From assembly GCA_051362555.1 (NCBI GenBank), contig CM120641.1, positions 19,902,001 to 19,966,000 on the forward strand: a stretch of DNA of 64,000 bases, in the 5' to 3' direction. Each line of letters starts with the position of its first letter. Position 1 is the first letter of the stretch. The notes beneath the pieces were generated by a model that was not told the DNA's origin, searched no databases, and saw nothing but the letters and a program-made list of their open reading frames with translations. This stretch comes from Lingula anatina. Taxonomy: Eukaryota > Animalia > Brachiopoda. The position numbers were made by a program, and so were the translations under genes. Of this stretch, positions 39,060 to 63,572 are shown piece by piece.

Positions 39060-42000
39060 ATGAGTGCCAAGTCGAAAAGAAGCCCCCGTGGCTCAAACAG
39101 TAACTTGACAGAAGCTGACGAAGCTGAAATGGATCGCATCGTCGGACGACCCGACAGTGCCCGCTCCCGTAAGAGCGCATGGGATGAAGATGGAGGCATG
39201 GACAACATGGGGTTTGACCGACCCTCCTCTGCGCGCAGCTACCGCGAGGAAGAAGAAGTCGGACGTATTGAAACCACCGATGATCTGTTCCCCACCGATA
39301 CCAGCATGGATGAGAAGAAGAAAGCCGAAGAGGCCGCCCCACCCTCCGGTTGCTGTGGAAAGTTCTTGGGTGGAATACGATGTAAGTGGAATTATCTGTA
39401 TCATTGCTTTGGTGTTACTTAAACTTGGAAATATGTATATATATTTAACACTGCTCTTAAGCAGAATATAAATTTTAAGAGTTTGAATAAATTTGTAGAG
39501 TGTTTAAGCACTTAAATGGCTATGAGGCGAGACCCCGTTTCTTAACTATTTACAGTGTAAACGTCAGTCATTCCGGAAACGTTCAGTTTTCTTGGTAAAA
39601 TAACCTGGCATAATAAAACATTCATTTGTTGTGTGTATAAGGCAAGAAAAACAGCGAGACTGAAAGGATTTCAGTTCAACCCAGTTCACAATTTATATCG
39701 CTGTCTGTATCGTTTTGATATAAGTAAACGGACCATTTACGTGCATATTAATTCTTCCAAAGATTTGCCCGTTCAGATAACATTCATTTTGGTGGATCTC
39801 TAAATTTGTACAACTGTAAAGACACTAATTTTATTTGATGATGTATAAAAAAGAAAACATGGCATTTAGATTTTTTATCCGTTCAGTTCCCTGTTTTTGT
39901 AGCTTTTTGAATGTTATTTAGGATAAGTGAGAGCTTGAATGCTGCACAATGCAACCTCAAAACATTCTACTAGACAGCCATTACTAAACTTAAGGAAATA
40001 AAGCAACAGATTTTAAACGGGTTTATGAAGATGTAATGTTGTATATGTTATACTTTGTACATAAAGAAACAAAAGGCAATATTCATTGTGTGTTGTTGGA
40101 TGATTCAGAATGATACATGTATTCAATAATATATGTATTGATCAGTGAGAGTTTTAAAGTTTTTAAACTTTAGAAATTAAAAAAATTATATGTTAATGAG
40201 GTTGACATAACCGACAATATGGATACTTTTTTAAACTAAGCATTTTTATCTAAGACTTTACAAATTAAATAAAATTGCATTTTTGTTATGGTTGAAGATA
40301 ATTTTCTTAAAAAATTGCAATGCACATTTATGTACTAATAAAAATTCAAGGAGAAAAAAATAATCTCACCCATTTGCATATTTTTATAGAGCAGTTTTGT
40401 ATATCAGTGAGCTTTCATTTATTGTTTCACTGATGTTGAAAATTAATTATGCCTAATCATGTGTTTGGTTGGCAACATTTGCCTTTCAGCTGCCCTCATT
40501 AAGTTTTGAATCTAATTATCTTATTCCATATTATTATTATTATTATTTCGTATTTTATTCATAATATTTTAAATGAGGTTTGTTTATTGGTATAAAATAT
40601 TTGCAAATATTTTTTTCTTCAAAAACATTCACTTCATATGGGAACTACTGATTATCTTATGTTGTATGCATTATGTCAGTTTCACTTTAATTTCAATATT
40701 ATTTACTTTAATTAAATGTTTGTCACAGTCACGTATTATATATTCATTTCTGCACATTTAGCACTGTGGAGAACCAGAGAGACTGTGGATGCATCAGGCA
40801 ATAAAGATCTCTACATCAAAACCACCCTAAAAGAGCTGATTATTTATCTTCTCTTTTTGGTGGTGTTATGTGTTAGTAAGTACATGTGTGCACTGGCTTT
40901 CTTTAGATTTTAGGTTTGGTTTGGTTTGGTTCTGGTTGGTTTTGGAGTGCTCTGACATTGACTTGCTGAGCATCTATTTAGAAAATATAAAACACCCTTT
41001 TTCATCAGTTGGCACATGTAGATATGACCTCCCTAGCTGTTTCCTGTGGCACCCAGCACTCAGCGTGGTAAGTAAAGTGTGAATCATCTCAGTTTGCAGT
41101 GAGTTTGTCTTACTTTTCTAACTATAACTTCTTCCAGCAATGTGGGCTACTAGACAATTGCAGTTTGAAGAGTCTACAAAAAATCAGGAACTTTACATTA
41201 AAACCACCCTGAGAGAGCTGATAGTGTATATTCTCTTCTTGGTCATTCTGATGGTTTGTAAGTATTCAGATTATATATCCGTTTTAATATAATATATTTT
41301 TATGCCTCAAGATATATTATATTCACTTTAAATTGGTTGGGGAATAATTTTTAAAGGATATAGAAAAAATGCTGAATAAATGAAAAGATATTGATGAGAT
41401 AAATAGTAATTAAGAAATGCAGTACATTTTATTGATCTCACCTTTGTATGAGACTTTGAAATGTTTGATTTTACCTGTTGAATTGATTTTTTTTTTTTGC
41501 TCTTCCCAACCCATAATCATGAATTGCTCCTTTGAAATGTTATCCATCAAGATTCATTCATACATTGATTTTTTGTCCGGTTCACAACATTTGATTGCCA
41601 TTCGATAATGTAATAGAAAGAGAGTACTAAATAATGCATTGAGTATTTGAGTATGCAATGCATTTAGCACATACAACTGAACTTGTGATGAATTTGAGTG
41701 GTGTAGAAAATTAGGAATCATTTTTACAGAAGTGAGATCAGAAATTGACATTTTTTCTTTGAATACGTTATAAAACAACAAAAACATAATAAAGTTAATG
41801 TTTTACTTACTAAATTTTCCACCTTCTCTTGGACACTTTTTTGTGATTTGTAGAGATTTTTCATACTGTTTTTTCATAGACTCTTTCTTTGTGTGGTGTG
41901 TCCAACATTAATGCCAGTAGGTCACTAATTGATATGTAAATGCATTTGTATCCACTTGACTTGGCAGGAAGTGCAACTTTGCCCTTTAGATATTCACTTT

Positions 42001-45000
42001 TCAACCAAAAGATTCTAAGCTTCAGCACCTTGAAGACTGGACTTTTAAGATTTCCATTAAAAAAGTGAACACTTCTTGAAAATCCCATTACTACATGATC
42101 ATTTTTCTCCAAACTAAAAATTGTTATTTCACATGTAATATTTTCTTGAATTTAGTACTGTATACATTGTACTGCACAAGCCTGGAAATAAAAGGGTTAT
42201 TTGTTGGATATAGAGACCATAGACCTCATTACATAATCAGATTCTTATTATTGAAATGTTTGCTTTGGCATTACTATGTGGAACTGTTATGCAGTTACCC
42301 CATCCAGGCTTTTGGCAAAATAAACTCAAGCATACCAAGTTTGTGGAAACTGAAGGCCTACTTTATTAAATGAAAGAATGGTCCCAAAGCTGTTGGTGCT
42401 TGACCCAAGTTATAGAAAAGTGTACCAAATATATGCACTGATATCAGACTGATGAATTAAATAAAATATTATTGATTGTGCTCTGCTTTTTCCTTTTAAA
42501 CTAGGATCTAAAATAAATACAATTTTTGGATATTAGATTAAATAAAAATTAGTGGAAGATTTATCTAGTTTTACCAATATTAATTACAAAGATGGTAATT
42601 TAACACAGTGTTAACTTAATATTTTTTTAATCTAAAATTCTATTTTCTGTTAGTAACCTTTGGCATGACCAGCTCCAACATGTACTACTACACCAAGGTA
42701 ATGAGTGAGCTCTTCTTGGACAACAGCTTTAATTCTAATGGACAGACCTTTCGATCAATTAGCAACCTTGGAGACTACTGGCAGGTTAGAAATATTTTCC
42801 AATGTGTATTTTATCAAAATTAATACTTTTTTCTAGTAAATGTAATGCATTAAAAAAAAAATCTTGTATTGCTTTATTTTAAGCATATTGCAGTTAAATA
42901 TCTGTGGCAAATTACTCAAAACTAGAATTTTTTTTGTTCTTTTTTTGAATGGTAAATTCATAAAGAACATGAATTTTGTTATTTCATTTCAATAAGAAAG
43001 TTGCAGCCAACAGAGGTAATTTTATGACACTGTCTCTTAAATTAAGTTCGCTCGTGGCCCTCTCATGGATGGACTGTACTGGGAAACATGGTACAACAAC
43101 CGCAACGTGTCACAGGATGAACTCGGCTTTATTTTCTACGAAAACAAATTGCTTGGTGTCCCTCGTATCCGTCAGCTGAAGGTTAAGAATGGCTCCTGCA
43201 AAGTGGAATCAAACTTTGGACATGTTATCGATGATTGCTATGGACCATATGCTTCAGGAGATGAGGACAAGTCAACCTTTGGGAAGGCAAATGGAACTGC
43301 GTAGGTTCAAAATTATATTTTTGTGAAAGTTGATTATGAAAGTGTATTTAATTTATTTACTATTATCAAAGCTTTTTTAACATTTAATAAAAGATTTAGT
43401 ACCAACTGATGTAGCACCACATGCAACTGATTTTAAACTAAAATTTTGAGAATATCTGCAAAGGGTAAGAAAATTAGATTTTACTTTTTGAAGTAAAGTA
43501 AAGTTTATAATATATCCCTTTCATGTATAGATATGTTGCTAACTGTTAGAGCCCTATTTTCAGTTGGTCCTACCAAACCTCTGAACAGCTTGATGGCTCA
43601 GGCCATTATGGCATCTTGACCCGCTATGAAGGTGGTGGCTATGTCCAGAAGCTGTCCACAACCAAAGCCAAATCCCTGGCCATCGTTGATGACCTGAAGC
43701 AAAACCTGTGGTTGACTCGTGGAACCAGGGCAGTTTTCACTGATTTCACTGTCTACAATGCCAACATCAATTTGTTCTGTGTCATCAGGTGATTGCCATT
43801 TTTTTCATTGGATATGAAAAGTTAAATGAAATTGAAAAGCATAGATAAATTCATTGAGTAATGAACTCCTTGAATAAATACATGATACAGTGGCAAATTA
43901 TGTGACTTAGGGTATAGGCTATATCAAAATCTTAAAAATAATATATATAATCTATTAGAGTTATAATCATTATTATTAATTTTATTTTTAATTGATTTAA
44001 CTAATTCACCCTTTTTGATGTTATTTCATGATATATTTTAACACATTTTCCAGACTTCTGGTTGAGTATCCTGCCACTGGTGGTGCCCTGTCCTCCTGGT
44101 CATTCCGTACCATCAAACTTATTCGCTACGTGTCAGTGGGAGACTACTTTGTCATGGCTTGCGAATGTATCTTCATTCTCTTCATCATTTACTACATCAT
44201 TGAGGAGGTTTTGGAGGTGAAGTAAAATTTTGAATACTTTAAATGTTAAAACATGTAGGTATGATGACTTTTTATGCCCAAATGATATTTTACTAGTATC
44301 ATAAAACAAACCTTGAAAGTTTGCATTTAACAAAAGTTTTTTAAATTACAGATCAAGAAACACAAAGTGGAGTACTTCAAACACTTCTGGAATGTAGTTG
44401 ACATCCTGGTGCTGGTGATCTCCTCTGTGTGTATTGCCTTCAGTATCTACCGTACCATTGCTGTGGACACCATGCTGGAGAAGCTGCTGGAAAACCCTGA
44501 GGAATTCCCTGACTTTGAGTTCCTCAGTTTCTGGCAGATGCAGTTCAACAGTGCCGTGGCTGTTGCAGTGTTCTTTGCCTGGGTGAAGGTAAATATTGGA
44601 AAATGTGAATAGGGATGCTGTACTATTTTATACAGAAATTTTTAAATTAGAAAATGAGTGTGTTTTATAGCAGCGGGTCATATTCAGGGACACTTTTCTT
44701 TTTTATTTTGACTTATTTTGTTTTGAAAATTATGAAATTATGAATTGATTAAATTGAAAAAAAAATGTAATAATTAAATACTCAAAATAAGTTGAAATTA
44801 TTAATATTGGATTTTTTTATGTAAATTGAGTATTGATCTAATCATGCCCAAAAATGTTGCAACTTCAATTTATGTTTTACAATTTTTATTTCAGGTTTTC
44901 AAGTACATCAGCTTCAACAAGACCATGACCCAACTGTCCTCCACCCTCTCACGGTGTGCTGGTGACTTGGCTGGATTCTTGGTCATGTTCTGCATCATGT

Positions 45001-47490
45001 TCTTTGCCTTTGCCCAGCTTGGTGTGCTCGTGTTTGGAGCAGTGATCAGAGACTTCAGCAACTTCTGGAACGCTGTGTAAGTTAGTTAAGAGACCATTAG
45101 ATTAAAGATGTTTGTATGTCAATTACACTGTATATATGTATTTTTGGGAGATGAGTAGTCTTTTAATCAGATTTGTTTTGTAATTTGAAGACATTCTTGT
45201 AACATCATGCCTGTTTTCTTTAACATCTTTAAACAAAAGTCAAAGTAGTAACAAAACTAATTGTGTTGATATGCATGTTTGAATTTAAGAATATAAAATT
45301 GAATATATGAAGACAATTTGAAAGCAATGAAGTGATTTGGCAATGAAAAACATTTATATTAACAAACGACATATGCTGTTTCAGGTTCACTCTGTTCCGT
45401 ATCATTCTTGGAGACTTTGACTTCAATTCCCTGCAGGACTTCGACAAATTCCTTGGCCCCCTCTACTTCTTCTGCTATGTGTTCTTCGTGTTTCTCATCC
45501 TGTTGAACATGTTCCTGGCCATCATCAATGACACTTACGCTGATGTCAAGTCTGACATAGCTTTGCAGAAGAATGACTTTGAGATGACTGACTACTTCAA
45601 GAAGGTAAGGTAGAAGAAAAACTTTAAAAATATGTTAAATGAACTTTAAGAAATATTTGGTTTAATGCTGGCTTGAAAGTAGTAAAGGCTCCTAAGATTG
45701 GAATAACCAGAGCAGTTATTCAAGTAGTAAACTTTTGTTTTTTGATAAACTATGTATAACATAAACTTTATAAAATTATTAACTTGTGCATTTTAAAGAT
45801 GATACCATAAATGCGATTATTGTATATAATTTATTTTAAATTTACAGGGCTACCAGAAGATGATGGACAAGTTGAATTTCAAGCGTGACAAGATTGTGGA
45901 CATTCAGAAGGCTCTGGCTAGTGCCGACATGGATAATGACATGGTGGTTGACTTTGATGAGTGGCGTACTGAGTTGAAGAAGTGGGTATTGTTTCATTAT
46001 GTCTTTTTTCATTTACTCTTTATCGAGTTTTAGAAGCCATTTGACATCATCTGTTAGTATTTTAACAGTTCAATTGAATGTTGTTGATTATATATGCACA
46101 AAAATAGAAATAGATCTTGGGATTAAAGGAACCAATTTCTGCTGTTAATATTTCAAAAATAATCTTTTTCAAAAATCTTATTTCTAGGCGTGGTTATGCT
46201 GACACTGAAATTGAAGCACTGTTCGCGAAGTATGATGTAGATGGTGACCGTACTTTGGATGAGTCCGAGCAAAAACAGATGGCAGTTGAACTTGAAGGCC
46301 AGAAAGTAAGCATATAATTGTAAAAGAAAAAATTAACAAGATAAAAAACCTTAATTCATCATATCTTTAAATTGGCAAATAATTTAACTGGCTTGTCTAA
46401 TTTTGTTTGATTGTTGTTTAATTGATGGTTGATTATTGTTGTTTGATTGATGAAAATTTTATCAATAACCATGCTTTTTAGTCCTCTTATTCAGTAACAC
46501 AGGGAAATTATTTTTCTCTTGAAAATTTATTCTAGGCCAAACTTGATGAAGAAGAAAATGAAATCGAAAAAGACAAAGAAATGGCACAGGCAGGTCGAAA
46601 AATGGGCGTGACAGTTGAAGAATTCAGTGTCCTACAGCGCAGAGTAGACAGAATGGAGCACTCCATTGGCAGCATTGTTTCAAAAATAGATGCAGTCTTA
46701 GTCAAGTTAGAAGCCATGGAAAAGGCCAAATTAAAACGAAGAGAAACAATGGCAAAAATATTGGACAGTATCACAGAGGTGTGTGTTAATGATATTTCTG
46801 AAAGATTTCAGTGAAATGAGATCATTATGAAACAGGAGGAGAAATAATGGCATAAAATACTGTATTCCACGGATTTTAAAAATTCACTTTTTTCATAAAA
46901 AAAACAGAAAGAAATAATAAACAAATGTGCATTTTAAGGTCATTTCCTTCCCATTATTAGTGCCTGGCCTTGAGTATTTATATTCTTTATACAACCAATT
47001 AACCACCATTTTGAAAAAGAAAATTAAAACTACAGATAAAGAAACACATTTTCTAATCATCTTTAAAGGCTGACGGTCTTGATGATGAAGAAAAGCGAGA
47101 CCAAATGGAAAGACTAGTGAGGGACGAATTAGACAAATGGGACCAAGATATAGAGACCAACAGCACAGGTGCCTCCTCGGGCTCGGACAGATCTCGGACA
47201 GCTAGCTCAAGACCACCTTCATCAGGATATGTTGGGGTAAGCATTGTTAAATAAATATTTTGAAAACAAGACTTAAAATTAAAGTAATGGATAAAATACA
47301 TAGGGTATTTTTGTAATTATTGCAGTTCAAGTATTATCTTCTTGTAATGCCAGAAATATGAAAATTTAGTTAACTTTTGTTATTTATAATGGTCACGTGA
47401 TCTGATGTGAGAGGTAACATTTTTCAAATGGTTTAAAATGATGACATTGTAATGTTTTTATACTTTGTTTGCTAACAGTCGGACTTCTAA
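39060..47490 (+). CDS. PKD2: Polycystin-2 / TRPP channel, paralog A (~840 aa)
   Basis: Exons 39060-39381, [40762-40875 or 41138-41257], 42654-42784, 43047-43300, 43564-43788, 44054-44216, 44352-44588, 44895-45076, 45385-45604, 45848-45981, 46188-46305, 46536-46778, 47069-47236, 47479-47490. Motifs [46 protein letters not shown], pore [22 protein letters not shown], two EF-hand loops, coiled coil [25 protein letters not shown]. Confidence 0.93.
40762..40875 (+). CDS. PKD2: PKD2-A exon 2a (pre-S1/S1), one of a duplicated pair
   Basis: tag...GTAAGT, phase 1-1, 114 nt: [38 protein letters not shown]. Confidence 0.85.
41138..41257 (+). CDS. PKD2: PKD2-A exon 2b (pre-S1/S1), one of a duplicated pair
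   Basis: cag...GTAAGT, phase 1-1, 120 nt: [40 protein letters not shown]. Confidence 0.85.
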
Positions 47491-47500
47491 ACATGAAAAG
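47479..47500 (+). CDS. PKD2: PKD2-A stop-containing micro-exon (SDF*)
   Basis: ctaacag|TCG GAC TTC TAA ACATGAAAAG|gtatg; homologous to 61896-61920 in paralog B. Confidence 0.7.
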
Positions 47501-50500
47501 GTATGCTGATCTGAACGTTATACCTATTTGAATATTTGTTGTTGTCTATAGTTTTCTTTGGTTTATTTTTTCTTCAGTTAACTTTTTTAAAATTCGTTGT
47601 GATTGATTAATTTGTTTTTAAAATGCAAAATAGCAATTTTTGCTTGTGATTTTAAGCTATTCGTTATATTTTAAATCGACTTTAAAGTATCATTTAAAAA
47701 CACCCGCCTTGCGCCAAGGAGTCTGTTTTGGTTGAACGCCGTTTAATCTTGTAAACTTTTCGCGTGTTTCTGTTTGGGCTACGATTGGTGTTCGTTCAGT
47801 TCTCCCTTTTTTCAGTCAGTTAACACTGCCAGAAAAGAGACTGCGCTTTCCCTTGATTCATTGTGTAGTGCTCATTCTTTCATGTTGAAATTTATACTCT
47901 GACGTAAATGCTTGAATGACTAGTTCGATTAATCAATCTCAATTGTGTCACGCCCAGTGGAACATAATTGAAGTGTAAACTGTTTTGGACAGGTATAAAC
48001 AGTGCTTTCAGTTGGTATTGATTAAACCGCCCCTAGGGAAATCATTAAATAAAAAAGTCGAGACACATTTGCAGACAAGGTAGCGATTTTAAATTCGATC
48101 GGCAAAATCAACGAAATGAATTATTTTCACTGTGTAAATCTTAGATGACATTTATAAAATCGCTATGAAAATATCCTCTGTTAGCTTTACAAAATAAAAT
48201 CTGTACAGACTTAAAAACAACCCTGTTTTGACGTTTCACCTTGAGATGAGAAAGGTGGCAAAAGTTGAATAATAAGTTTAGCTGAACGATACGTTATGTC
48301 GCCAGCCACAACAATTCGAATTTTATCAAGCTCAATTGGTAAATAAACGAACCATTCACCCATGAGAGCTTGTTCGTTTGTCTGAGCAGTCTTATTTATT
48401 TCTTTGATATTCTGACTTTTCTTTTCAGGATCGGGTTTACCAAAACAGAAAAGATTCAAGTCCAGTGTGAAATCGGCATATACGGCAGATGCCTACCGGT
48501 ACCAACCAGTTATTATTGAGATTCTGTTTTCGTTCAATTTCAATTAAATAATCCGTCCGGGGAAACTTCAAGTGTCAAGAACTACCTTTTGCCACGCACT
48601 GTCTGAGAGCGTGACCTTCACGACCACCCTTCGTGATGCGAAAGAAAAATACGTAAATGGCAAAATATAGCGTTATTTATCAAAACTTTTCCTTGACATG
48701 GACTGTTGACATCTTGAACGTCTTTTCATCAGAGTAGCCAGAATGAAATGCAACAATGTGCAATGGTCAATGTCACTTCAAAACAGCATCTACTTAAAAA
48801 GAAAAGAAGTCTGCATTGCGCGTGACTGGGAGTGAAGCAGGGTTAATTATTTATTGAGAAATGAGCGTTTTTCAGCCGGTCTGAAATGCGTTTAATTTGC
48901 TGGAGAAACGTAACTGTCTGGTCGTGCATTATTTATAAACAATTACTGTATCCATATTTATTTGTCTCATCGAAAAAACATGAAATACTCTGCCGATGTG
49001 CAAGTCTTATGTTGGATTTGTATCTATACTAGTGATATATCTATTTTTGAGTCGTTAATAGGCTTCTCGTATATATTTACAAATGTCTTCAAAGACATGC
49101 TTATCAATGTGAGATAATGTGATATTACTTGTAGGGCAATTATTTAATGAGTGGTGTCTAAAAATATTATTTTGTTCTACACTGCATTTACTTGTCAGGT
49201 TTTAACGTAAGAAAGTGAATGGTAAAGATTAGCAGCGCTTCATAGCGAGTTACTGCAACAGGTTCCTAACTGGTATGTCTATATATTGAGGTCGAGTTGT
49301 AAATTTCGCAAAATAAATGACACTATTCTTCTGTTCTAATTCTTACTGTTTCGGTCCTTCGGGTACTTTGTATATGATGCACTTTGCTTTTCCTGTTTTC
49401 TGCAGCAATAAAAGCAATTAAAATTATTTGAAAGAGTTTTTTATTTGTTTGTTTGTTTGTGATGATTTAGTCGAACTCCCTTAGATATTTAACTCTGAAA
49501 TTTATTGATTTATTTAAGATTTTGGCAGATACCTACCATGTGTTTAGGCAAAATGGTAGGCCTACCACTTTTTAATATCGGATTTACGACGGTTAAGTCT
49601 CCAAAGGAGAAATGTGCGAGCGTCTAAACTTTATCTTGGTCATTAATACGCTCGACAGTGTCGAATTGGCTTTTGGTAACATTTTCACATTTTCTAAGAT
49701 TTGAAAATATATAAATTGCTTTTTACGATGTGAGAAAAGAAAAACTAAAATGATAATATAATAACTATCTAATAAATTTTATGAAGTAAAAAAATAAATT
49801 ATGATTTTAAACAAAAACCTCTTCAATCAATCTAATTGTTGGACAAATCGACCAATAGGCAAATTAGTAAATGTAATTGATTTGCACGTTCTCATACTTT
49901 TGCCTTGATTTTCGTTAATTGCTAGACTCCATTTGATATTACAAAAATCTCAGTAAAATCTTGAATTATCCAGTCAATTCACAAGAGATATAATAAGGTA
50001 AACCTTTTGGCCATTAGTTCAGAGATGAATAAACCGGCATAAATTTTTCCTTTACGAATGTCAATCGATATTTCAGTTATCATTTATTAGAAAAATAGCT
50101 ATAAGATGATAAAATTAGAAAACGTTACAAAGAAAAGTTGGGAAGCACAATAAATAAAACTGAAAATGTAAAGTGGACGTTGTTATACGTCAGCAAAAAC
50201 GCGACCAGGCGATTAAAACTTCTCCAATAAAACATTTTTTAATCTTTGTTTAAAGTCCTTGAAACAAACTCCATTTTTGTCTTGAATTTAGATAACGACA
50301 CAAGGCATCCACTTAAGGTCAGCATAGCAAAATCAGACAGATGCAGTTGATTTAATACTTTGAAATATCCACTTTTGTTCAACACCACAAAGTCAAACAT
50401 CGAGAGGTTATCTCGGGCGAACCAACATTTATGCTTTCTTTTCATTTCTTTTTATCCCAACTGTTTAGAATCGCCGTTCTTGCTGGCGAATAACCGTGAT

Positions 50501-50927: not shown

Positions 50928-52305
50928 CAGGGACGGATCCAAGATAATTTGAAAGGGGGTTCACGCGTGCGAAGCCGACCCCCCCCCAACCCCACCCCAC
51001 TTGGCGTGGGGTTCGGCCCGCTGAAGGGCCCCGGAAATTTTTGGTATTTTAGAGGGCGAACGGTGCCATTTGGTTCGGTTTAGAGCGATGATTCAGCTAG
51101 TCAAAATTCTAATTACAAGAGCTGACCAGAAATCAAAGGGGGGCTCCCACGTAAATTTGAAATTTGTCACCACCCACGTTTTACCCCCACGTTATGTGTA
51201 ACGTTGCACCAACGTTACTTTGAACGTGGATCCCATGTTAACTTGTAAGAAGTTTGAACGTGGCAGCAAAGAAATATTGAAAGTAGATTCTACGTAAATT
51301 TGTAAGAGTTATGAACGTGGAATACACGTTGAAGCTCCACTTTACCTATAATGTGGCAGCATCATTAATTTGAACGTGGATCCCACATAAATTTGTAACC
51401 GGTTTGAACGTGGAATACATGTTGCAGCTCCACTTTACCTATAACGTGGCAGCAACGTTACTTCGAACGTGGCGCTCACATAAATTTGTAACCGTTTTTC
51501 ACGTGGAATACACGTTTCACCCCCACGTTACCTATAACGTGGCAGCAACGTTACTTTGAACGTGGTGCCCACGTAAATTTGTAAGAGTTATGAACGTGGA
51601 ATACACGTTGCAGCTCCACGTTATCTATAACGTGGCAGCAACGTTACTTGGAACGTGGCGCTCACGTAAATTTGTAACCGTTTTTCACATGGAATACACG
51701 TTTCACCCCCACGTTACCTATAACGTGGCAGCAACGTTACTTTGAACGTGGTGCCCACGTAAATTTGTAAGAGGTTTGAACGTGGAATACATGTTGCAGC
51801 TCCACTTTACCTATAATGTGGCAGCAACGTTAATTTGAACTTGGTGCCCACGTTAATTTGTTAGAGGTATGAACGTGGAATAGGCCTACACGTTTCAGTT
51901 TCACGTTACCTATAACGTAAGAGGTTTGAACGTGGTATACACGTTACGTGTACGTGGCAGTGACGTTACTTTGAACGTGGTGCCCACGTAGATTTAATTG
52001 TAACCGTTTTTTTCGTGGAATACATGTTTCAGCTCCACGTTACCTATAACGTAGCAGCAACGTTACTTTCAACGTGGTTCCCACCAGGGGCGGATACAGG
52101 ATTATTTGAAGGGGGGGGGGGGGGTCCGCAGATGCGAAGCCGACCCCCCCCCCCCCCCCTCCTACTTCTCGTGGGGCTCGGCCCGCTGAAGGGCCCCGAC
52201 AATTTTTGGTATTTTAGAGGGCGAACGGTGCCATTGATTCAGCTAGTCAAAATTCTAATTACAATAGGGGACCCCCCTGACCCCCTCCCTCTAAATCTGC
52301 CACTG
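50928..52305. mobile_element. Composite non-autonomous DNA transposon: 5' MITE copy + 93-bp tandem array + complete MITE
   Basis: Ends CAGGGACGGATC ... AATCTGCCACTG form imperfect TIRs, flanked by CATAA direct repeats at 50923-50927 and 52306-52310. Segments ~50928-51118 and 52085-52264 are homologous (gcgaagccgacccc...cggcccgctgaagggcccc...gattcagctagtcaaaattctaattacaa). Confidence 0.7.
51145..52084. repeat. 93-bp tandem minisatellite, ~10 copies, built from AACGTG..CACGT palindromic sub-repeats
   Basis: ggcagc anchors at 51355, 51448, 51541, 51634, 51727 and 51820 are exactly 93 bp apart. Confidence 0.95.
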
Positions 52306-53006
52306 CATAACTCCCCTTCCCAAACGGTCTGATTAAGACTTCTTCGATGTGATATTTTTTTCTATAATGCAATTCATATCTCGTTGGTAATAAACACTTT
52401 TACAGTCCCCAGATATTGGACAAGAAATTGTATTTTAATCAGAAAAAAAAAAACTGTAAAGAGGGGGGTCTATTTTGTCGTCATGAGCACTTCCTCAATT
52501 TTAAAATAAACAGTCAATACACGAGTATTATGCTGATGTTAAATTTGTTATAAAATATTTAGTAAGCTCTTAAAACAACATAAAGCTTTGCATCTAGAAA
52601 AGATCCATGGTATTTTTTTAAGTCGTGGACTTTTGTCGACTTATCTACTTTCAGCAGGGTAACAGATTTAAAAGTTGTTTTAAGAAAACAATTTAAAATC
52701 CTGTTATTATCAGATTTTTGTTGTTCTACTTTCTTTTGACTCCCCTTGACCATTTTCTATTTGCGAACGGCTGCGTGTTCCACAGTTCGGTTGGTAGAAT
52801 CCATATTTTAGTGACGTCATTTAATCTCAAGGGAGCCATGTTCTGTTGTATTTGTAGACAGGGACTGACACAGCGGTCGATATTTTCTCATTAAGGTGGG
52901 CTTTTGCTGAATTGCAGGTGAATATTAAAGTTGATTTATCGAGGATCGAATAGAAACTACTGAGCAAGCGCAAATCGAAGAATCTGACGGTGGTTGGGAC
53001 TTTAGT

Positions 53007-56000
53007 ATGAGTTCAAATTCACACAGAAACAACCGCACTTTGCAAGAAGAGGTGGAAATGTCGAACAGAAATCGCCCTAGCAGTGCCCAGTCAAGGCAAG
53101 CCTGGTCGGACGACGGGAGCGACCGCCCGGACTCACGCCAGGGACGCGATGGAGGTTTTCGGGAGGATGCCGATCTGTCTCTCCCCGCAGCAATGGAAAG
53201 CGACAACTACCTGAATACCGTCTGCGTCCAAGAGCGTGATGAAGTGGAGGTGCAAGATAACTCCAATGGTTGCTGGGCCAAATTCAAGAGAGGTGTCAGA
53301 TGTAAGTTGTAAAGATGCTAGCATTTCCTACATTTTAAAATAAATATACACTGCTGTTACTGTGCCCCAAATTTTCTTGAATTTTTAGAAGAAACTTTTT
53401 TTTTTTTTTTGGGGGGGGGAGCTTAGTTTTGTGAACAATGCCAATGGTTTAATACGTTCTCTAAAACACCTCAAGAAAGATAATGTACAAAATAAGATTT
53501 AATGTTAGATAAAGCATCATGTTTTGATGGATGACCGAAAAAGAACATTTATAACTCATTGTGGGATTTTCATCGCTAGGGTAAAACATAAAACATTTCC
53601 ATCCTAGATCTGACCTGTTACTTTGCTTGAAAAATTTATTGAAATTTTTTGTCAGGTGGCAGGTCAATGAAATATATATAAATATCAGTAGTATTATGTA
53701 AAAATAAATAATGCCAAGGGAAAAAATATGTATGATTTTATTTTGTGCTAAAAATGAATAAGTAAAAGTATCTTATAATTCTTTTTCCCGAAATTTTAAT
53801 ATACAGACAATTCTAACTTGCCAGTGGAAAGAAAAATACTGTTAATGTTAAAACATTGAAATATAGACAGTGGATATTTGTTCATAGCTGAACAGTATTT
53901 GTTAAAAGGAGATCAGAGTTTATCCAACTTTTTTTTTTAATTTGCTTGCTGCACTTATTAAGCCATTCCATTTGTGCTAAGAAAAGTTTTCACTAGTGAT
54001 GCGAAAAGGTTTTTATTTACACATTTAGACAAACTTTGTCATAATTTATTGTGTTAAAGCAAGACCGAATCATCACATCATCAAGAAAGTTTGATTGCCA
54101 AATATTTGAATTATTAGCTTCATAAACATATAATACGTTGCACTATATGGACATAAGTTTATTACATAAAATCTCATCTGTGTTTACTTTAAATTACTTT
54201 TGTGGGAGTGAAGTAACAAAACATTTTTTCATTACAAAAGAACAAGCCGATTGAAAGTTGTAAGGGTGCGAAACAAATTACTTATTTAGGTTTATGCATA
54301 TGAAGGCCTTCAAAACATAATAAGGTTTAAAGTTCTATTGAGATATTTACCATTTTTGGTGTATGGTTTATTATAGAAACTACAGACAGTAAATCCTGAA
54401 TTGGGTTCACTTGATTAGGTTCCTTAAACAAATTGCTTTGAATTCAGATGTAAGGTTGTTGGGTTAATTGTTATTATATTTCAAAAATCATATAAACAAA
54501 GTATTTTATATGAATTTTTGCACCAGGGCATGTTTAACTTTCCATTCTTCATCAGTATGATAAAATTTTCTACAACCAAATACATTCTTTTCTTTTCTTT
54601 TATTTCGAATTTGTATATTTATGTGCTCATTATAAATGTTCTTAAAACTTGTTAATTATACTCCTGTACAAAATACTGAATGATTTATAAACATACAACT
54701 TTTATGGAATAAAAATTATTTACTCTTTTACATACTCTAAGATTATATTTTCTTGCCAGATTATCATTCACTACTAACTTCTTACATAGGTACAATGAAA
54801 CTTAACATATTCCAATTAAAACTTCACATTTTATAGCTATTTGGCAAACCAAGGATATGCAGGATGAGGATGATGACAATAAGGACTTCAAAGTGGTCAC
54901 AACCATACGAGAACTGGTCATTTATCTCGTATTCTTGTTGGTTCTTGTTGTTTGTAAGTAAAGGATACTAAATCCTGGACGTGCATGTGTTGATATTGTG
55001 TGTACTTTATTTTCCAGTTGTATTTATTTTGTTTTATTATATTTGTATTTTCTTTTTGATGTTGTCTTATTTAGATCCTGATATAGATCAACACAGAGGG
55101 GTTGTACCACCAAGCAGAGATTCACCTTTTGTTTATAGTGCATTATTATGTCTCTTGTGTTTTTATTTTATGGTTTATCTGTCTCCCTTAAAATAGCACT
55201 TTGGGCAACCAAGCACACTGAAGACACCAAGACTGATCGAGAACTCTATGTTAAAACCACTTTGAGAGAGCTGGTTATCTATCTTCTTTTTCTGACTGAT
55301 TTGACTATTTGTAAGTATTTGTGATAGTGCATTTTAGTTTGTAAATATGTTATTGCACTTTTCTGTCCTGGATATATGTTTTTTTCTCTCATTTTAAATG
55401 GTCAATCTATTTTTTGTCACTTTTTTTTGTCTTGCAGTAGAAAATGTTAATATGTTGACATGTAACTTTTACAATTTAATGATTGTTTTTAGTTTTAAAA
55501 AAATTGAATTTAACCAATTTGCAAGTTGAAGTATTTGTACTTAGAACATGCTAATGCAATTTTTAACTCCCAAGCACAAAACACGTAACGTAAAAGTGAA
55601 TTGAAAATTAGTGATTTATATAACATATTTAAAAAAGAGCATTAAAAAAAAGAGTGGAATGAAGGACTAAATGAATGTGTTCCAAAAGCCATTTTGATGG
55701 CACAGTGTGTTTGGTAATGGCAAACTAGGTGGTGGTAGACTTGCACAGGAAAAAGAAGATCGATGTTACCTGTGTGCTTGACAAAATCAATATGCAATTA
55801 ATACTGTGCTTGCTCACAGACCCTGGAAATTAGACAATGATACTGTTAATCCAAAATCAATTATTCAGAGACTGGCATAGAAATAATGTCTTTGTCAAAC
55901 AGTTTCTATTCAGAAGAGGCAGTAGTTGCTACAAAACAGTTATATCTGTTTTAGCTATGATCATCGATTGTGCCGTTAATGTTCTGAAGTTTTACAGCCG

Positions 56001-59000
56001 TCAGCTTTGTAAAGTTTCTAGCTATTAACTTGTTCAGTAATTTGTCCCATGGTGTTCTAATTGCATATTTTGAAATTATAGATTATTGGAATGGCATGAT
56101 TAATTATTGACCTTTACAAAATGATATTGGTTATTAATTGTGAAAATCATTTGAGCTAGAAAATGTTTTTTTTTTTTTTTTTTTTTTTTAATTGGGCAAA
56201 AAATCCATGAATCATGACATTTCTTTTGGGATAGAGTTTTTGGACTTTTGCCAAAAAAAATTTTTTTTTTGGTCACACCTCTCTGTACGTCATGACATCA
56301 ATGGCAGTGAAGTTAATTTGAGATACATGCAAGATATCCATTGCTTTTTAATTACTGTTAGAGTGCCAATCAATATAACTTCATTTCAAGTTTGCGTGCT
56401 TACAAGGAAATGACCAAATGAAAGTGCATAATTCAGTACTTTGTGGGAAATAATATCCTTATTTTTAACATAACCAGGAAATTTTATAGCAGTCTCTAAT
56501 GGCATTACCAAAGTTAAAGCATACAATAACAATGAAAAATAACAAGACACGACACTAGAAAAAGTATTTGTTTTTTGATTTCATTAAAAAATTTTATCAT
56601 AAAAACAAATGGTTAATTTATATAAAGCTCTTGTTTGGATATATGATTTTTGGTAAAAGGTAAATATAAGAAAATGTCTTAAAATGGTAGTTACATTGAA
56701 TTTTCTCTTCCTTGTCTTGGCTACAGTTATTGTGATTGACTGATGGCCACTAAAAAGGCTATAAGGGCGAGTCCAGTATGCATGACACCGACACTGAGAA
56801 AAAAATATATATATGTAGAAAAAGAATTAATTTATTTATAATAATCAATTAACTAATACTTTCTGAAGTTATTATTATAAGATTAAGTTAATAAAATTCC
56901 TCATCTTTAAACCTTAGTGACCTTTGGCATGAACAGTGAGACTTACTACTACTACACTAAGGTGATGAGTGAACTGTTCTTAGATGGTCAGTTTGCCGAC
57001 ACCAAGAACACTTTCCGAGGAATGACTACAATGCAGGACTTCTGGAGGGTAAAGATATGCTTATATTTATACAGATTTGAGATTTTATTTATTGACATCA
57101 AGAATGATGGCATGTTAAATTAATGATATGAGGAAAATAGATGTATTGATTGTGGAATTTATAACAAAATGCAAACAAATAAATTAAAAGATTTTAAGTA
57201 ATAAATCATGGAGGTAATTAAATTAAGAATTAAAGAAAAAAATGAGTTGTCTTTAGTCTTATTTTACTTCTGCCTCAAATAACAGTCAACCAGTCACAGA
57301 AGTTGAAAACTTCATCATTACTATATGAATTGCTGAATTGCTCTTACACTACAAATGTCTAATAACATTTACAGTTTGCCGAGGGACCTCTGATGGACGG
57401 ACTTTACTGGGAAAAATGGTACAATGGACAGAACGTCAGTGACAGCCAACTTGGATACGTCTTTCATGAGAACAAACTCCTTGGTGTCCCTCGCCTGAGA
57501 CAGCTGAAGGTCAGAAACGACTCCTGTGAAGTTCATGATGACTTCAAGAATGAGATCAAGACTTGCTATGATGCCTATGCAGAAAGTATAGAAGACAAGT
57601 TTCCGTTTGGGAAAATGAATGGGACGGCGTAAGTAACCTTAATTTGAACATTCATAGTATCCAGCAAACAAAAAAATACTTATCTTTTTCAAATGTTTTT
57701 TCTTAATTAAGAAGCTTGAGCAACATTGTGTACATTGTATGTGATGTCTTATTTTGTAAAGTTTCTCACTTGGCAAAAAAGGCATGTTGAATAAAAAACA
57801 GCACCTGTAATGTGTAAGTCATCTTTTTTCAGTTGGGTCTATCAGACTGAAGATGAACTGGACGGCTGGGGACACGAAGGTTTGATAAGTGAATACGGTG
57901 GAGGAGGTTTCGTCCAGAACCTCTTGTTGACCAGGGAAAAGACTGAGCCCATCATTGCTGACCTGAAACAGAACCTTTGGCTGGACCGTGGAACCCGAGT
58001 CGTCTTTGTAGACTTCACTGTGTACAATGCTAATATCAACCTGTTCTGTGTTATCCGGTAAGCTACTTTGATCTCAACAGATTTAGGGATAAAAAGCAGG
58101 TACCTGGTAAATGTTTTACATTGTCTAAAGCTTGCAAAAGTAACTGCACAGTAACTGTTCTAACGAGACCCTTTGGTTAACTTTTGCCATTTAGCTCAAA
58201 ATTATGAGAGAGAAAATCTGGTCTTTTAGGTGGCAATTAAAATGAAACAAGTGTCATAATACTATGTGCGCATTAAACAATTTTAAAGAACATTCTTTGT
58301 GTTTTGAGTTGTCTCTGACATTATGTTTTCAGACTGGTTGTGGAATTTCCTGCCACTGGAGGAGCTATTCCATCTTGGTCTTTCCGTACAGTCAAGTTGA
58401 TCCGCTATGTGTCCATTGGAGACTACTTTGTACTGGCTTGCGAGGGCATTTTCTTGTTGTTCATCATCTACTACATCATTGAGGAAGCATTGGAGGTGAG
58501 AAATTTGTTAATGAACATTACTAATATTTAATTTTATACATTCTGGTTTAGAATACAAAGGTGATGGGATTTGACACATAAGGTAACAGAACTTTAAAGC
58601 TTGTGAATAAAATGCATTTCTGTTTGGCAAAAAAATGGTACTCCTTAAGATTTTTAACTTCGCATGATGTGTTCTACAGAGCATTTATCTTCATTTTCAG
58701 ATTGCCAAGCACAAGTGTCAATACTTCAAGAGCGTCTGGAACATCCTGGATATCGTCGTGATTGTGATCTCTGTGGTCTGTACCGTGTTCAATGTGTATC
58801 GGACCATAGCAGTAGGGAACATGCTGGAATCGCTGTTACAGAAACCGGATGAATTTGCCGACTTTGAGTTCCTTAGCTGGGCTCAGGTCCTGTTTAACCA
58901 GGGCATTGCTTTTGCCGTCTTCTTCGCTTGGGTGAAGGTGTGAAAATTTGCTATAACAAGATTTATATATTTTTGTATAGAATAATCATTTCAAAAGGTA

Positions 59001-59635
59001 TCAATACTGCATGACTACTTAACATTTTGAATAAATGACCACTTTCAGTAAGCATTATGAAAAATATTGTAAATATCTGTCTTGATATTTAGAAGGGAAA
59101 AATTCAATATTTTTCATATTATTACATCTAATTAAAATCTTGTGAAGTTAATTCTCTAATTACGTATCACAAAACTGAGTTACTTTGTGTAATAAGGAAG
59201 TATATTGATGCACAGTTGTTACAATTTTTTCCAGATTTTCAAGTACATCAGCTTCAACAAGACTATGACCCAGCTCTCCTCCACCATTGCTAACTGCGCC
59301 AAGGACTTGGCAGGATTTGGTGTCATGTTCTTCATCATCCTGTTCGCTTTTGCCCAGCTTGGTTACCTGATCTTCGGTACCCAAGTCAGGGACTTCAGAA
59401 GCTTCCCTGACACCATGTAAGTGTCCACATTCATCAATTCTTCTTATGAGCCTTTTTATTTAGGTGCATAAAAATGTTATGTGCCATATTCAATAAAGCG
59501 TCTTCTTTTTGATGAAAACCCCAAATTTGCAGCAGTATTTTTATGGCCATGCATTGAATATTCTTACTATAACATGGAAGCGAACTGAAATTGAAAATTT
59601 TGTTGTAATTTGTATTCATGATTTAATATAATGTA

Positions 59636-59703
<68 letters not shown>

Positions 59704-62167
59704 TTTCAGCCTTACCTTGTTCCGTATCATCCTTGGTGACTTTGATTTCCATGAGCTGGAAGCTGCCCACCGTGTTCTGGGTCCACTGTATTTCCTCCTG
59801 TACGTGTTCTTTGTATTCTTCGTACTGCTGAACATGTTCTTGGCCATCATCAACGACACTTACTCTGAGGTGAAGGCTGATCTGGAGAACCAGGAGAATG
59901 AATTCGAATTGCAGGACTACTTCAAGAAGGTAAATCAGTAGGCTGAAAACACTTGGCAATGTTTTTTCATTACCTTCTGGCTGGGTATATCATTTTATTG
60001 AATCTTGGGTAAGAAATTATATAAAAAGCACTACTGAAGCAGACAACAAGGAGTTAAAGGGCTTATAGTGTTAAATTTGGATTTTATTGACAAAAACAAA
60101 ATTTATATTTAAGTTTGTTTGTTTTCTAGGGCTACGACAAGATGTTGGACAAACTGAAGTTCAAGCGTGATAAGATCATTGACATCCAGAAGGCCATTGT
60201 TGATGCTGACGCCAATGCTGACAAGCAGATTGACTTTGATGAATGGAAACGTGACCTGAAAGAGTGAGTTGTCATATGTGGAAAATTTCTCCATAATGAC
60301 TTTAAATTGTTTTTAAATTATGTTCTATTTCAATGACCTCAAAAACAGTTGTTAAAAAGTTTTTTCTTACAGATAGGCATCAAGATCAGATACTTATATG
60401 AAAGTTTATTTTCTTAGGAGTTGAGAGCAGGAAATGATATGTTTTCTATTTCTTTTCAGACGTGGTTATGCTGACAGTGAAATTGAAGCTGTGTTTGCCA
60501 AATATGACTTGAACAATGATCGTATGCTTGATGAAGAAGAAATCCGCAAAATGCAGGAAGAACTGGAAGGACAAAGGGTAGGAAATGATTTTTACCTAAA
60601 GATTATAAGAAGTTTTACAAGTTTGTTGACAGTATATGGATAGTTCTATGAATCTTCATGTGCTAAATGTTTAAAGATACAGATGTAAAGATATAGATGT
60701 TTAAAGATGCAGATGTAAAGATATAGATGTTTAAAGATATAGATGTAAAGTAAAGATAATTAGAGAAAATATTTTGTTTTTCAAAAAAGTTAACTCCTAA
60801 TCAAAATGGAAGTATGTCTTTTCAAATATAAACGTATTCTTCCTTTAGATGGCAGTTGACAAGGAATTTGAAGGTCTTGAAAACAAAGAAGGAGAAGCAG
60901 CAGCCAGACCAAAGAGTTCAGCCCGTCGCAGATCAGCCAGACCAGGTAGTCGGAAAGGAAGCAGCAGATTCAGTTTCGGAGACGACAGTGGTGATGATAG
61001 CGATGATGAAGACAGTGGAACACGATCAGGAAGAACAGGACGCTTTGTCAGTGGTGTATCATATGAAGAATTCACAGTCCTCTCTAGGAGGGTAGACAGA
61101 ATGGAACATTCTATAGGCAGTATAGTATCCAAGATAGATGCTGTTCTTGTCAAATTAGAAGCCATGGAAAAAGCAAAATTAAAACGAAGAGAAACCATGG
61201 GGAAAATATTGGACAGTATCACAGAGGTAAATTTCAACACTGTGATTTCCTTCTTTTGTAAAGTGAAAAAGTAATATATCTTTTCACCATTTCTTCCTTT
61301 GTATAACCATTTATTGTTTGTACAGCCTGTTCAAGTGAACAAAAGTCTTTCAAGATTCTCTTTGCTTTTCTTTGGGGAAGCTGCTCCTTTTGAAAATTAA
61401 AAAATTTGAGGTTTCTGTGATGATTTCTATAGATATTAAAATTTGTGCCAATTGGTGGAATTATGCGACAAGAGCATTCTTACATGTAATTTTACATTGA
61501 CTTTTCAGTCTGAGGGTGTAGGGGATGATGAAAAGCGTGACCAAATGGAAAAACTTGTCAGAGAAGAACTTGAGAGGTGGGACTCTGAACCATCCATCCA
61601 ACAGAGTGGCCGTGGTGCCTCGCCACGCTCCCCACCATCTGGTGTAAACGTAAGTTATTTTACATCACTAGCTGAATTAAACTAATTTTAATATTTAAAA
61701 ACACATATAGAAAATTCGTCTACCCCCTTGAGATAAGGGATTAAAATGCAGTTTGTATAAGGATGAGAAAAAAAAAAGAAGAGTTGTGTTTAGAAATTTG
61801 CATGGAACTGTAGATGAATAATAATAATATTTATATATGTCAAAGTGGAATTGTATGTGAAAGTTTACACAGTCATTATTATTATTTACATGCAGTCATC
61901 TGAAGTGTAAACATGACAAGGTAACATAAATGTGATTTTTTTAATGTCTTGTTTTGATGTCTGTCATGGTTACTCTTATGAATGTCTGTTTCACCATCAC
62001 TGGTAGGATATTAATTAATGCATGTCTGTTATTAAAAAAAATTTTCATTTAAGTGTTTTGTGCTTTTTGAGTAACTTCATTTGCCCAGCAATAACACTTA
62101 TCTGTTATTAAAGATCTACTTTTCCTTTTTTTAGGACACAGACCAAATGGGATCACACAATGTGTAA
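53007..62167 (+). CDS. PKD2: Polycystin-2 / TRPP channel, paralog B (~870 aa)
   Basis: Exons 53007-53301, [54837-54953 or 55197-55310], 56918-57048, 57375-57628, 57833-58057, 58333-58495, 58701-58937, 59235-59416, 59710-59929, 60130-60263, 60460-60577, 60849-61226, 61509-61649, [61896-61920 optional], 62135-62167. Exons 3-11 have the same lengths as in paralog A and the same TRPP motifs. The start could instead be the Met at 53058. Confidence 0.93.
54837..54953 (+). CDS. PKD2: PKD2-B exon 2a (pre-S1/S1), one of a duplicated pair
   Basis: tag...GTAAGT, phase 1-1, 117 nt: [39 protein letters not shown]. Confidence 0.85.
55197..55310 (+). CDS. PKD2: PKD2-B exon 2b (pre-S1/S1), one of a duplicated pair
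   Basis: tag...GTAAGT, phase 1-1, 114 nt: [38 protein letters not shown]. Confidence 0.85.
59641..59698. repeat. (TA)29 microsatellite next to the PKD2-B exon 9 acceptor
   Basis: Direct reading; acceptor AG at 59708-59709. Confidence 0.95.
60668..60750. repeat. Short tandem repeat (aaagatatagatgt variants)
   Basis: About 5 copies of a 14-16-bp unit in PKD2-B intron 11. Confidence 0.8.
61896..61920 (+). CDS. PKD2: PKD2-B stop-containing micro-exon (SSEV*)
   Basis: tgcag|TCA TCT GAA GTG TAA ACATGACAAG|gtaac; phase 0 after exon 13. Confidence 0.7.
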
Positions 62168-63572
62168 AGAATAAACGGACTTTCAATTATTTTTAACCCC
62201 AGCAAAGATACCAAGTAATCTCAAGAACTCCAAAGAACTATTTATTTTGTTTTTAAAGCTTTTTTTATTTGCATTTAACATGTTAGTATTATGCAGAGTA
62301 TTGTGTGCATTTTACTTGATGGATATTTTCTTATTACGAGATGTTACTACTTACAACTCAAGTGATGTCAGGGAAAACAAAGTAGTCAAGATGATATGTT
62401 TAGTGGCAATAGCATCTATTTACTTGCCAGTGTAATTCAGCATTTGTGTTCGACTTAAAAAACTTAATTGGATATTACTAATTTCATTGAAATTCACGAT
62501 TTTGAAGTTTTATCTAGATTTAGCTGGTCTAAATTAGATACAAGAGATATTTGCCAACATTCTCATTCTCAAACAAACTTGACTCGTGAATTTTGAACCA
62601 AAATTTTTTTAATACTTTCTTTCAACACATTTTTGTAGAACTGCTTTTTAGTTCTGTATTGTATCAAACAAACTTCAGTGATTTAACTGAAGTGCAAAAT
62701 GAGCTAAATATTCACTGCACATCTCATTCCGTCCTTACAGTAGGCTATGCTGTACTTAACGTTAGTGTGAATTGTATTGGACTAATTGAAGGCCATGTGA
62801 GTTTTGCACCAGTGTAGCAGCACAAAGCTGTTAGATAATCGGCATTGGGTTAAGACAATCGCAAACAATGTAAATATAACCCAGAAACATTCAAGGCTTG
62901 AATTGAAGGGATTTTAAGTTCAAAGAGGTTGGACAAGGGACCAAAACTAACAACTGCACCGTCCAAGTAAACAATTACAAAGAGCATGGTTACACTTTGA
63001 TATGTTTTAATAAATGTGGAGGGACCAAGAAGTGTTAAAAGATCTTTGGCTGGATTCAGTGCATTGCATGTGAAAGTTTCACTCCAAATTATTGCACATT
63101 CTTGTCCACTTAATACTTTTGCCAGTTCTGTTCACCTAATTGTATGAATGCAATAAAATGTTTTGTCAAAGCAACAAAAGTGTTAAAGTTTATTTACAAA
63201 ACCTTGTGACTTTTTCAAAATGAATTATTTTTGTAAAAAAAATTATTTCAGTTATATCACTCACTATACACACTTTCAAATGGTGTTTTCTAACTAAATT
63301 ACATTCCTTTACGAGGAAATTTTCATTCTTTAAAAAATATTTAAAATGACCAGGTTATATTTCTTCTTTATAAGTGACATTCATCTTATCATTAATTACG
63401 TGCCCATGAAGTTCACCAAACTAACCAGCAGCCAAAATCATTTCTTAGTTTGCATATAGCTGCTAACCAGTCCCAGATAGCCAATTTTCTCTTGAAATCA
63501 TGACAAGGAATTGCAATTTTATGCCAAATGAAATAAAATTGAACCAGTGACTGTTATCAATCCTATGGTGTT

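Follow-up and report, generated by a model that had tools for sequence, protein, structure and literature searches.

The window analyzed here, a 64,000-nt stretch of the Lingula anatina genome, carries a tandem pair of PKD2 (polycystin-2) genes, both on the + strand: gene A at ~39060-49400 and gene B at ~53000-63160. The RefSeq proteins of both genes were placed exon by exon on the window (protein-to-window map); a gene A exon matched XP_013419430 at 100%, and a gene B exon matched L. anatina XP_013419423 at 100%. Polycystin cation-channel, TOP, and EF-hand domains were present in precomputed Pfam assignments (PF08016, PF20519, and PF00036; P0001, P0170). Judged by sequence divergence, A and B are old paralogs, with 62% amino acid identity and 73 of 182 fourfold-degenerate sites identical (0.40). 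In a quick tree, both genes fell inside the spiralian clade (SH-aLRT 98), with the A/B sister relation not settled and the duplication therefore not dated. The branch leading to gene A was long (0.87; B, 0.41), and RNA run X2 contained B reads but no A expression, which suggests that A is the faster-evolving, more restricted copy.

Toward the 3' end of each gene, a penultimate common coding exon (61509-61649 in gene B, RefSeq XP_013419422-424; 47069-47236 in gene A, RefSeq XP_013419430-432), placed by RNA joints and the protein map, ends in phase 0 and is followed on the + strand by a stop-carrying micro-exon and a terminal exon. The gene B micro-exon is a 25-nt cassette (61896-61920) encoding SSEV and a stop, with 10 untranslated nt behind it, and is spliced on both sides in runs X7 and X9. 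Its gene A counterpart is 22 nt long (47479-47500), encodes SDF and a stop followed by 10 untranslated nt, and is bounded by joints 47236-47479 and 47500-48429. The terminal exons span 62135-63160 in B (from depth and joints; 3' end approximate, with AATAAA at 63152) and 48429-49420 in A (from sequence, RNA joints, and RefSeq; 3' end approximate). In both genes, then, inclusion of the micro-exon gives an SSEV or SDF end and turns the last exon wholly into 3' untranslated region (UTR), while skipping opens a long tail in the last exon: 10 residues in B and DRVYQNRKDSSPV, followed by a stop, in A.

The coordinates, frames, and letters of both micro-exons, together with the phase-0 ends of the upstream exons at 61649 and 47236, were as given in the original prediction. 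Its expectation that gene predictors would likely miss these exons proved wrong, since both isoforms of both genes are modeled in RefSeq. For gene B, isoform X3 (XP_013419424.1) ends in GVNSSEV and isoforms X1 and X2 end in GSHNV; for gene A, isoform X3 (XP_013419432.1) ends in VGSDF and isoforms X1 and X2 end in DSSPV. A second micro-exon look-alike lies in the last intron of gene A (47958-47992), consisting of an AG, WNIIEV with a stop, 14 nt, and a GTAT donor. Around the EV-stop, it has 12 letters in common with the B micro-exon (blastn E 0.23); no RNA joint supported it in run X7 or X8, and it may be a chance match or a rare or decayed copy.

RNA runs were chosen by species label, and seven of the nine were aligned to the window. 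Gene B was examined in runs X1, X4, X7, and X9 and gene A in runs X2, X5, X7, and X8, with a joint reported only when at least 3 reads from 2 starts covered it. All four predicted joints (61649-61896, 61920-62135, 61649-62135, and 47236-47479) were found. In gene B, inclusion joint 61649-61896 was covered by 14 reads in X7 and 22 in X9, and inclusion joint 61920-62135 by 15 and 19 reads, respectively; the skip joint 61649-62135 was present in four of four runs, with 47 (X1), 7 (X4), 13 (X7), and 23 (X9) reads. In X7 and X9, the B joints start at 61648 with one T between, reflecting a synonymous difference at 61649. The micro-exon had zero depth in X1 and X4, against 47 and 7 skip reads. Inclusion of the B micro-exon is sample dependent, at 0.53 in X7, 0.47 in X9, and 0 in both X1 and X4 (Fisher P of 1e-11, pooled). 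In gene A, joint 47236-47479 was covered by 19 reads in X7 and 27 in X8, and a further joint, 47500-48429, by 19 and 26 reads; no skip joint (47236-48429) was listed in these two runs among 46 upstream-junction reads. Run X2 contributed only cross-mapped B reads to gene A, and X5, with no reads on A, is uninformative. The claim that the tail is switchable in both paralogs is therefore supported for B, which is alternatively spliced, and not for A, where two of the four runs expressed the gene without a skip joint and the skip form comes from RefSeq models only.

Dozens of fixed differences and indels set runs X7, X8, and X9 apart from the window in the regions compared (46480-50200 and 60780-63300), with most reads 95 to 99% alike, while X1 and X4, the runs without B inclusion, were near-identical to it. 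This divergence suggests that X7, X8, and X9, which carry the same species label, come from a distinct population or a cryptic species. Since the B-including runs are those that diverge from the window and run tissues are not given, the shift in B inclusion from 0 to ~50% mixes sample type inseparably with population. One could accordingly ascribe B inclusion to a population difference or to splicing noise with no regulated role, given that it appeared only in two divergent runs of unstated tissue. However, the splice sites are intact on the window haplotype itself, and the SSEV form is among the RefSeq models for this genome. Gene A was expressed in the same study whose runs include the B exon and was not seen in X2; this co-occurrence gives a hint of one cell type.

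Each micro-exon places its stop 10 nt ahead of the last junction, with no later joint listed. The limit for nonsense-mediated decay (NMD) is placed at ~55 nt from the last junction (PMC13247117). The prediction that the stops fall inside the ~50-nt NMD escape zone agrees with the reads, in which the included form accounts for roughly half of B and for every A junction read listed; for B, a stop this close to the last junction in an mRNA as abundant as the skipped form fits NMD escape.

We next considered what the alternative ends could bind. A class I PDZ ligand has the form [S/T]-x-hydrophobic at a free C-terminus, an acidic residue at -1 favors PDZ domains of the DLG/PSD-95 type, and Y-x-V ends are a class II-like form. 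As predicted, the included tails of both genes (SSEV and SDF) fit the class I rule by motif. The skip tail of B (SHNV) does not, whereas the skip tail of A (SSPV) does, which by the same motif leaves no general PDZ on/off switch. A link between polycystin-2 (PC2) and PDZ scaffolds has been reported: in mouse cells, ciliary targeting of PC2 required DLG1 PDZ1-2 and was blocked by an IETDV peptide (PMC11239879), whose ETDV end is likewise acidic at -1, and an interaction of PC2 with PATJ is cited in PMC12512994.

To place these tails among relatives, we drew on protein clusters and on one metagenome contig scan. The protein set comprised 30 clusters, 22 spiralian and 8 deuterostome or cnidarian, with at most 15 members listed per cluster except for the oyster cluster (40 of 51 members). 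At least 16 of the 22 spiralian PKD2 clusters contained, among the members listed, both a short tail and a long tail that part from a common position: Lingula A and B, three gastropod, five bivalve, Octopus, Sepia, two nemertean, Owenia, and Paralvinella clusters. Both tails were not seen among the members listed in the other 6 (Biomphalaria, Capitella, Dimorphilus, Watersipora, and 2 others). The micro-exon swap is thus older and broader than first thought, with the short tail in named molluscs, annelids, and nemerteans known from protein isoforms and not as an exon. Noise would not keep both tails in 16 of 22 spiralian clusters over more than 500 million years; a purely population-based or noisy origin of B inclusion is accordingly very improbable.

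From these clusters we assembled 17 tail pairs by choosing a single short and a single long isoform in each, with two pairs from oysters; additional tails, such as those in oysters, Mytilus, Dreissena, Mercenaria, Mizuhopecten, and Owenia, were omitted. The short tails were class I in 14 of 17 cases and carried D or E at -1 in 15 of 17, counts that come from related species and are not independent. The three outside class I were SSKA, PAEV, and FPDA, and several short tails from unnamed sources end in A. Of the 17 long tails in these pairs, 10 were class I and none was acidic at -1; the background class I rate in internal tripeptides was 0.03. The original prediction held that the micro-exon turns class I binding on and that skipping turns it off in both paralogs. 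By the motif rule, that model describes Lingula B, which also differs across samples, and 7 of the 17 pairs, including oysters, mussels, clams, and a cuttlefish/squid cluster. However, another 7 pairs were class I on both sides and 3 were reversed, several of the supposedly "off" tails end in Y-x-V, and the SPV end of the A skip tail is itself class I, in a gene read without skipping. The long tail of B also keeps its end valine and descends from an S-N-V end present in the outgroups. We therefore regard a simple on/off switch as unlikely.

The outgroups differ in what they carry. Among the members listed, none of the 8 deuterostome and cnidarian clusters had a short S-[D/E]-hydrophobic tail, and all 8 include S/T-N/K-V ends, with some echinoderm isoforms showing unrelated acidic ends. 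The metagenome contig scan with the upstream exon yielded 78 loci. Among 15 transcript loci, a short tail was followed, 1 to 4 nt past its stop, by an intact long-tail frame in 7, of which 6 are distinct; examples are L064 (QSDF, then DFYQSNV), L050 (SSEV, then DYFTSSV), and L039 (LSDV, then DLEDSLISTM), each tail ending in a stop. The nearest named proteins of these loci are annelid, gastropod, or bivalve. Genomic micro-exon candidates included L042 (TSEA, stop, and 4 nt), L053 (LPDA, stop, and 4 nt, followed downstream by the exon encoding the DGLGSAV end of the Paralvinella protein that it matches), L061 (QSEV, stop, and 3 nt, with EMYDLSNSSSV downstream), and L003 (TPDV and a stop). Mollusc-like and annelid-like DNA and transcripts share this arrangement, in which a short tail and its stop precede 0 to 4 nt, a donor, and the exon of the long tail. 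Micro-exon candidates were present in 5 of 9 nonclitellate spiralian-like loci against 0.05 expected, by a rule tuned after viewing the data and with the donor of one locus (L028) doubtful. This candidate count covers 31 of the 78 loci, with near-duplicates and short loci left out.

Within the same count, no micro-exon candidate was found in 3 bryozoan-like loci or in 4 coral-like introns, and one was found in 1 of 15 loci with EFFG tails (0.12 expected). The EFFG-tailed group, whose long tail runs from EFFG to a terminal C (L001, L004, L011, L020, and related loci, 15 in all), mostly goes without a micro-exon candidate, and the bryozoan-like loci have a terminal exon ending in SD and a stop, without a long tail; the two groups likely represent losses in each direction. 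In the coral-like loci, a phase-0 intron at the same place leads directly to an exon of the form D...HTNV, which points to the long-tail exon as the older of the two.

The tails could also act otherwise than through PDZ domains, as a C-terminal degradation signal, through ER retention or export, through serine phosphorylation, or by way of a 3'-UTR splice that tunes the mRNA level. Features in line with such a role are short tails in A or M (SSEA, SSDA, PDA, SKA, and TSDM), in which the acidic residue is better preserved than the hydrophobic end, long tails of bivalves with a cysteine end, and mild constraint on the 10 untranslated nt in Lingula. Nonetheless, 14 of the 17 short tails and 10 of the 17 long ones have a free V, L, I, or F end with S or T at -2, compared with a background rate of 3%, and this is the pattern of PDZ ligands. 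In addition, the stretch after the stop differs freely in length and sequence from one animal to another, and PC2 has reported links to the PDZ scaffolds PATJ (PMC12512994) and DLG1 (PMC11239879). We consider a function apart from PDZ binding improbable.

The post-stop sequence was examined on its own account. As originally noted, the 10 untranslated nt are 9/10 identical between A and B, and the flanking introns of the two genes have no alignable similarity beyond short, chance-level words. The window contains the pattern of a stop followed by ACATGA-N-AAG and G two times, where shuffles give an expectation of 0.01; this significance is overstated because the pattern was derived from those same two sites. 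Without the three donor-consensus bases, the match is 6/7 (P of ~0.02 at the fourfold rate of 0.40 and 0.003 at random), consistent with mild constraint in Lingula as read from the sequence; the stretch is perhaps an exonic splicing enhancer. The proposal that the motif TAAACATGA.AAG, ahead of a GT donor, would recur in relatives failed, in that it was found in 0 of 78 related loci and is Lingula-only; other animals have 0 to 4 nt after the stop. Re-initiation at the post-stop ATG was set aside: by eye, this ATG shares the reading frame of the long tail in L009, L017/L066, and L039 but not in either Lingula gene.

Tissue-regulated (neural-type) microexons are at most 27 nt long, and the Lingula exons, at 25 and 22 nt, fall within that length. 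The neural-type signature further consists of a UGC just upstream of the acceptor (SRRM4/eMIC) and a frame-preserving length. A TGC upstream of the acceptor was present in Lingula A, Lingula B, and L061 and absent in L003, L042, and L053, and the exons end the frame, so the SRRM4/eMIC-type description does not apply. An RBFOX-type TGCATG was likewise rejected as a common signal, since it flanks the B exon (61799 and 62019) and is absent around the A exon.

Taking the tail comparisons together with the RNA reads, we conclude that the micro-exon probably exchanges one PDZ-scaffold preference for another rather than turning binding on or off, as an ancient lophotrochozoan tail swap in PKD2. In both Lingula genes, a stop-carrying micro-exon ahead of the last exon puts a short S-[D/E]-hydrophobic end in place of the long tail. 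In this proposal, both ends would be PDZ-type ligands of different preference, the short one predicted to suit domains of the DLG/PSD-95 type. The long-tail exon (D...S/T-N-V), common to corals, echinoderms, and hemichordates, would be ancestral, and the micro-exon would have a single origin in early lophotrochozoans, before the A/B duplication. Its stop would lie close enough to the last junction for NMD escape, its inclusion may follow a cell type, the one also expressing gene A, and the swap could affect ciliary or membrane targeting of the channel. A more specific version, possible but distinctly more tentative, is a lophotrochozoan-wide cell-type switch in which ciliated sensory neurons would use the DLG/PSD-95-type ligand and epithelia the ancestral S/T-N-V ligand; Lingula would be fixing this split in its genes, A always taking the micro-exon where expressed and B still toggling. 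PKD2-1 of the annelid Platynereis acts in ciliated mechanosensory neurons (PMC6294549).

The Lingula layout is that of a stop-carrying penultimate cassette exon of the SynGAP exon 19 or NF2 exon 16 type: the micro-exon is spliced at both ends in A and B, and the skip form has its own open tail in B (four of four runs) and, by RefSeq isoforms X1 and X2 only, in A. In SYNGAP1, a short stop exon before the last exon (exon 19; SynGAP-gamma versus alpha1) similarly swaps the C-terminal residues, and its choice decides whether the class I PDZ ligand QTRV is present (PMC7314543). SynGAP belongs to another gene family, and its binding has been shown by experiment, whereas the PKD2 tails are predicted ligands by motif; moreover, the small SynGAP exon removes a ligand, whereas the PKD2 micro-exon in most cases adds one, with another frequently present in the skip form. 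Inclusion of NF2/merlin exon 16 (isoform 2), also a penultimate stop cassette, gives a shorter protein with a different C-terminus, although merlin is a cytoskeletal linker and no channel, with no PDZ-ligand swap described in the accessible text (PMC5929554). A broader class of NMD-resistant alternative C-terminal isoforms, in which a non-triplet cassette exon moves the stop under the ~55-nt rule, often in a cell-specific way in Caenorhabditis elegans, has also been described; the available text mentions neither polycystin nor PDZ (PMC13247117), and the PKD2 case adds conservation across phyla.

Work on PKD2/TRPP2 with PATJ and DLG1 and on Platynereis PKD2-1 concerns the same channel family (PF08016, PF20519). 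In their accessible portions, the scaffold papers describe no splice control of the tail and do not state direct binding of the PC2 tail to DLG1, the Platynereis study contains neither "isoform" nor "PDZ" (PMC6294549), and an abalone TRP survey contains no mention of PDZ or isoform (PMC12980990). A literature search over listings, abstract openings, and passages of the papers cited here found no description of the conserved PKD2 tail swap. The isoforms are already present in RefSeq, and the conserved tail swap is a new member of the SYNGAP1 exon 19/NF2 exon 16 layout. The PDZ scaffolds PATJ and DLG1 are implicated in routing polycystin-2 to cilia or other membranes. A natural tail pair retained in brachiopods, molluscs, annelids, and nemerteans, two ends on one channel, would allow this routing to be tested directly. 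Platynereis, if the exon is present there, would be a suitable test animal, as its PKD2 mutants have a clear behavioral defect.

Other features of the window were recorded in passing. In both paralogs, the exon encoding the pre-S1 helix and the first membrane segment exists as two mutually exclusive copies, which distinguish RefSeq isoforms X1 and X2 (40764-40874 and 41140-41256 in gene A; 54839-54952 and 55199-55309 in gene B; + strand). A single version of this exon was found in the isoforms checked from 10 other clusters (Owenia, Dreissena, Patella, oyster, Octopus, Lineus, two hemichordates, sea urchin, and Actinia), so the pair is possibly special to Lingula. The end of the coiled-coil exon (46700-46778 in A, 61150-61226 in B) is ~93% identical in DNA between genes that are otherwise near saturation; by sequence, this likeness suggests strong constraint or local gene conversion. 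Such identity is enough for RNA reads to cross-map, and reads joining the B coiled-coil exon to the next exon of A, and the reverse, were attributed to cross-mapping between near-identical exon ends and not to chimeric transcripts. On the - strand, 34259-35737 holds a 492-codon Thr/Ser-rich, mucin-like open frame with a membrane segment at its end, a neighboring gene on the opposite strand. Between A and B, ~51370-52050 contains an array of diverged ~90- to 95-nt repeats, visible as repeated peptides in the frame list.
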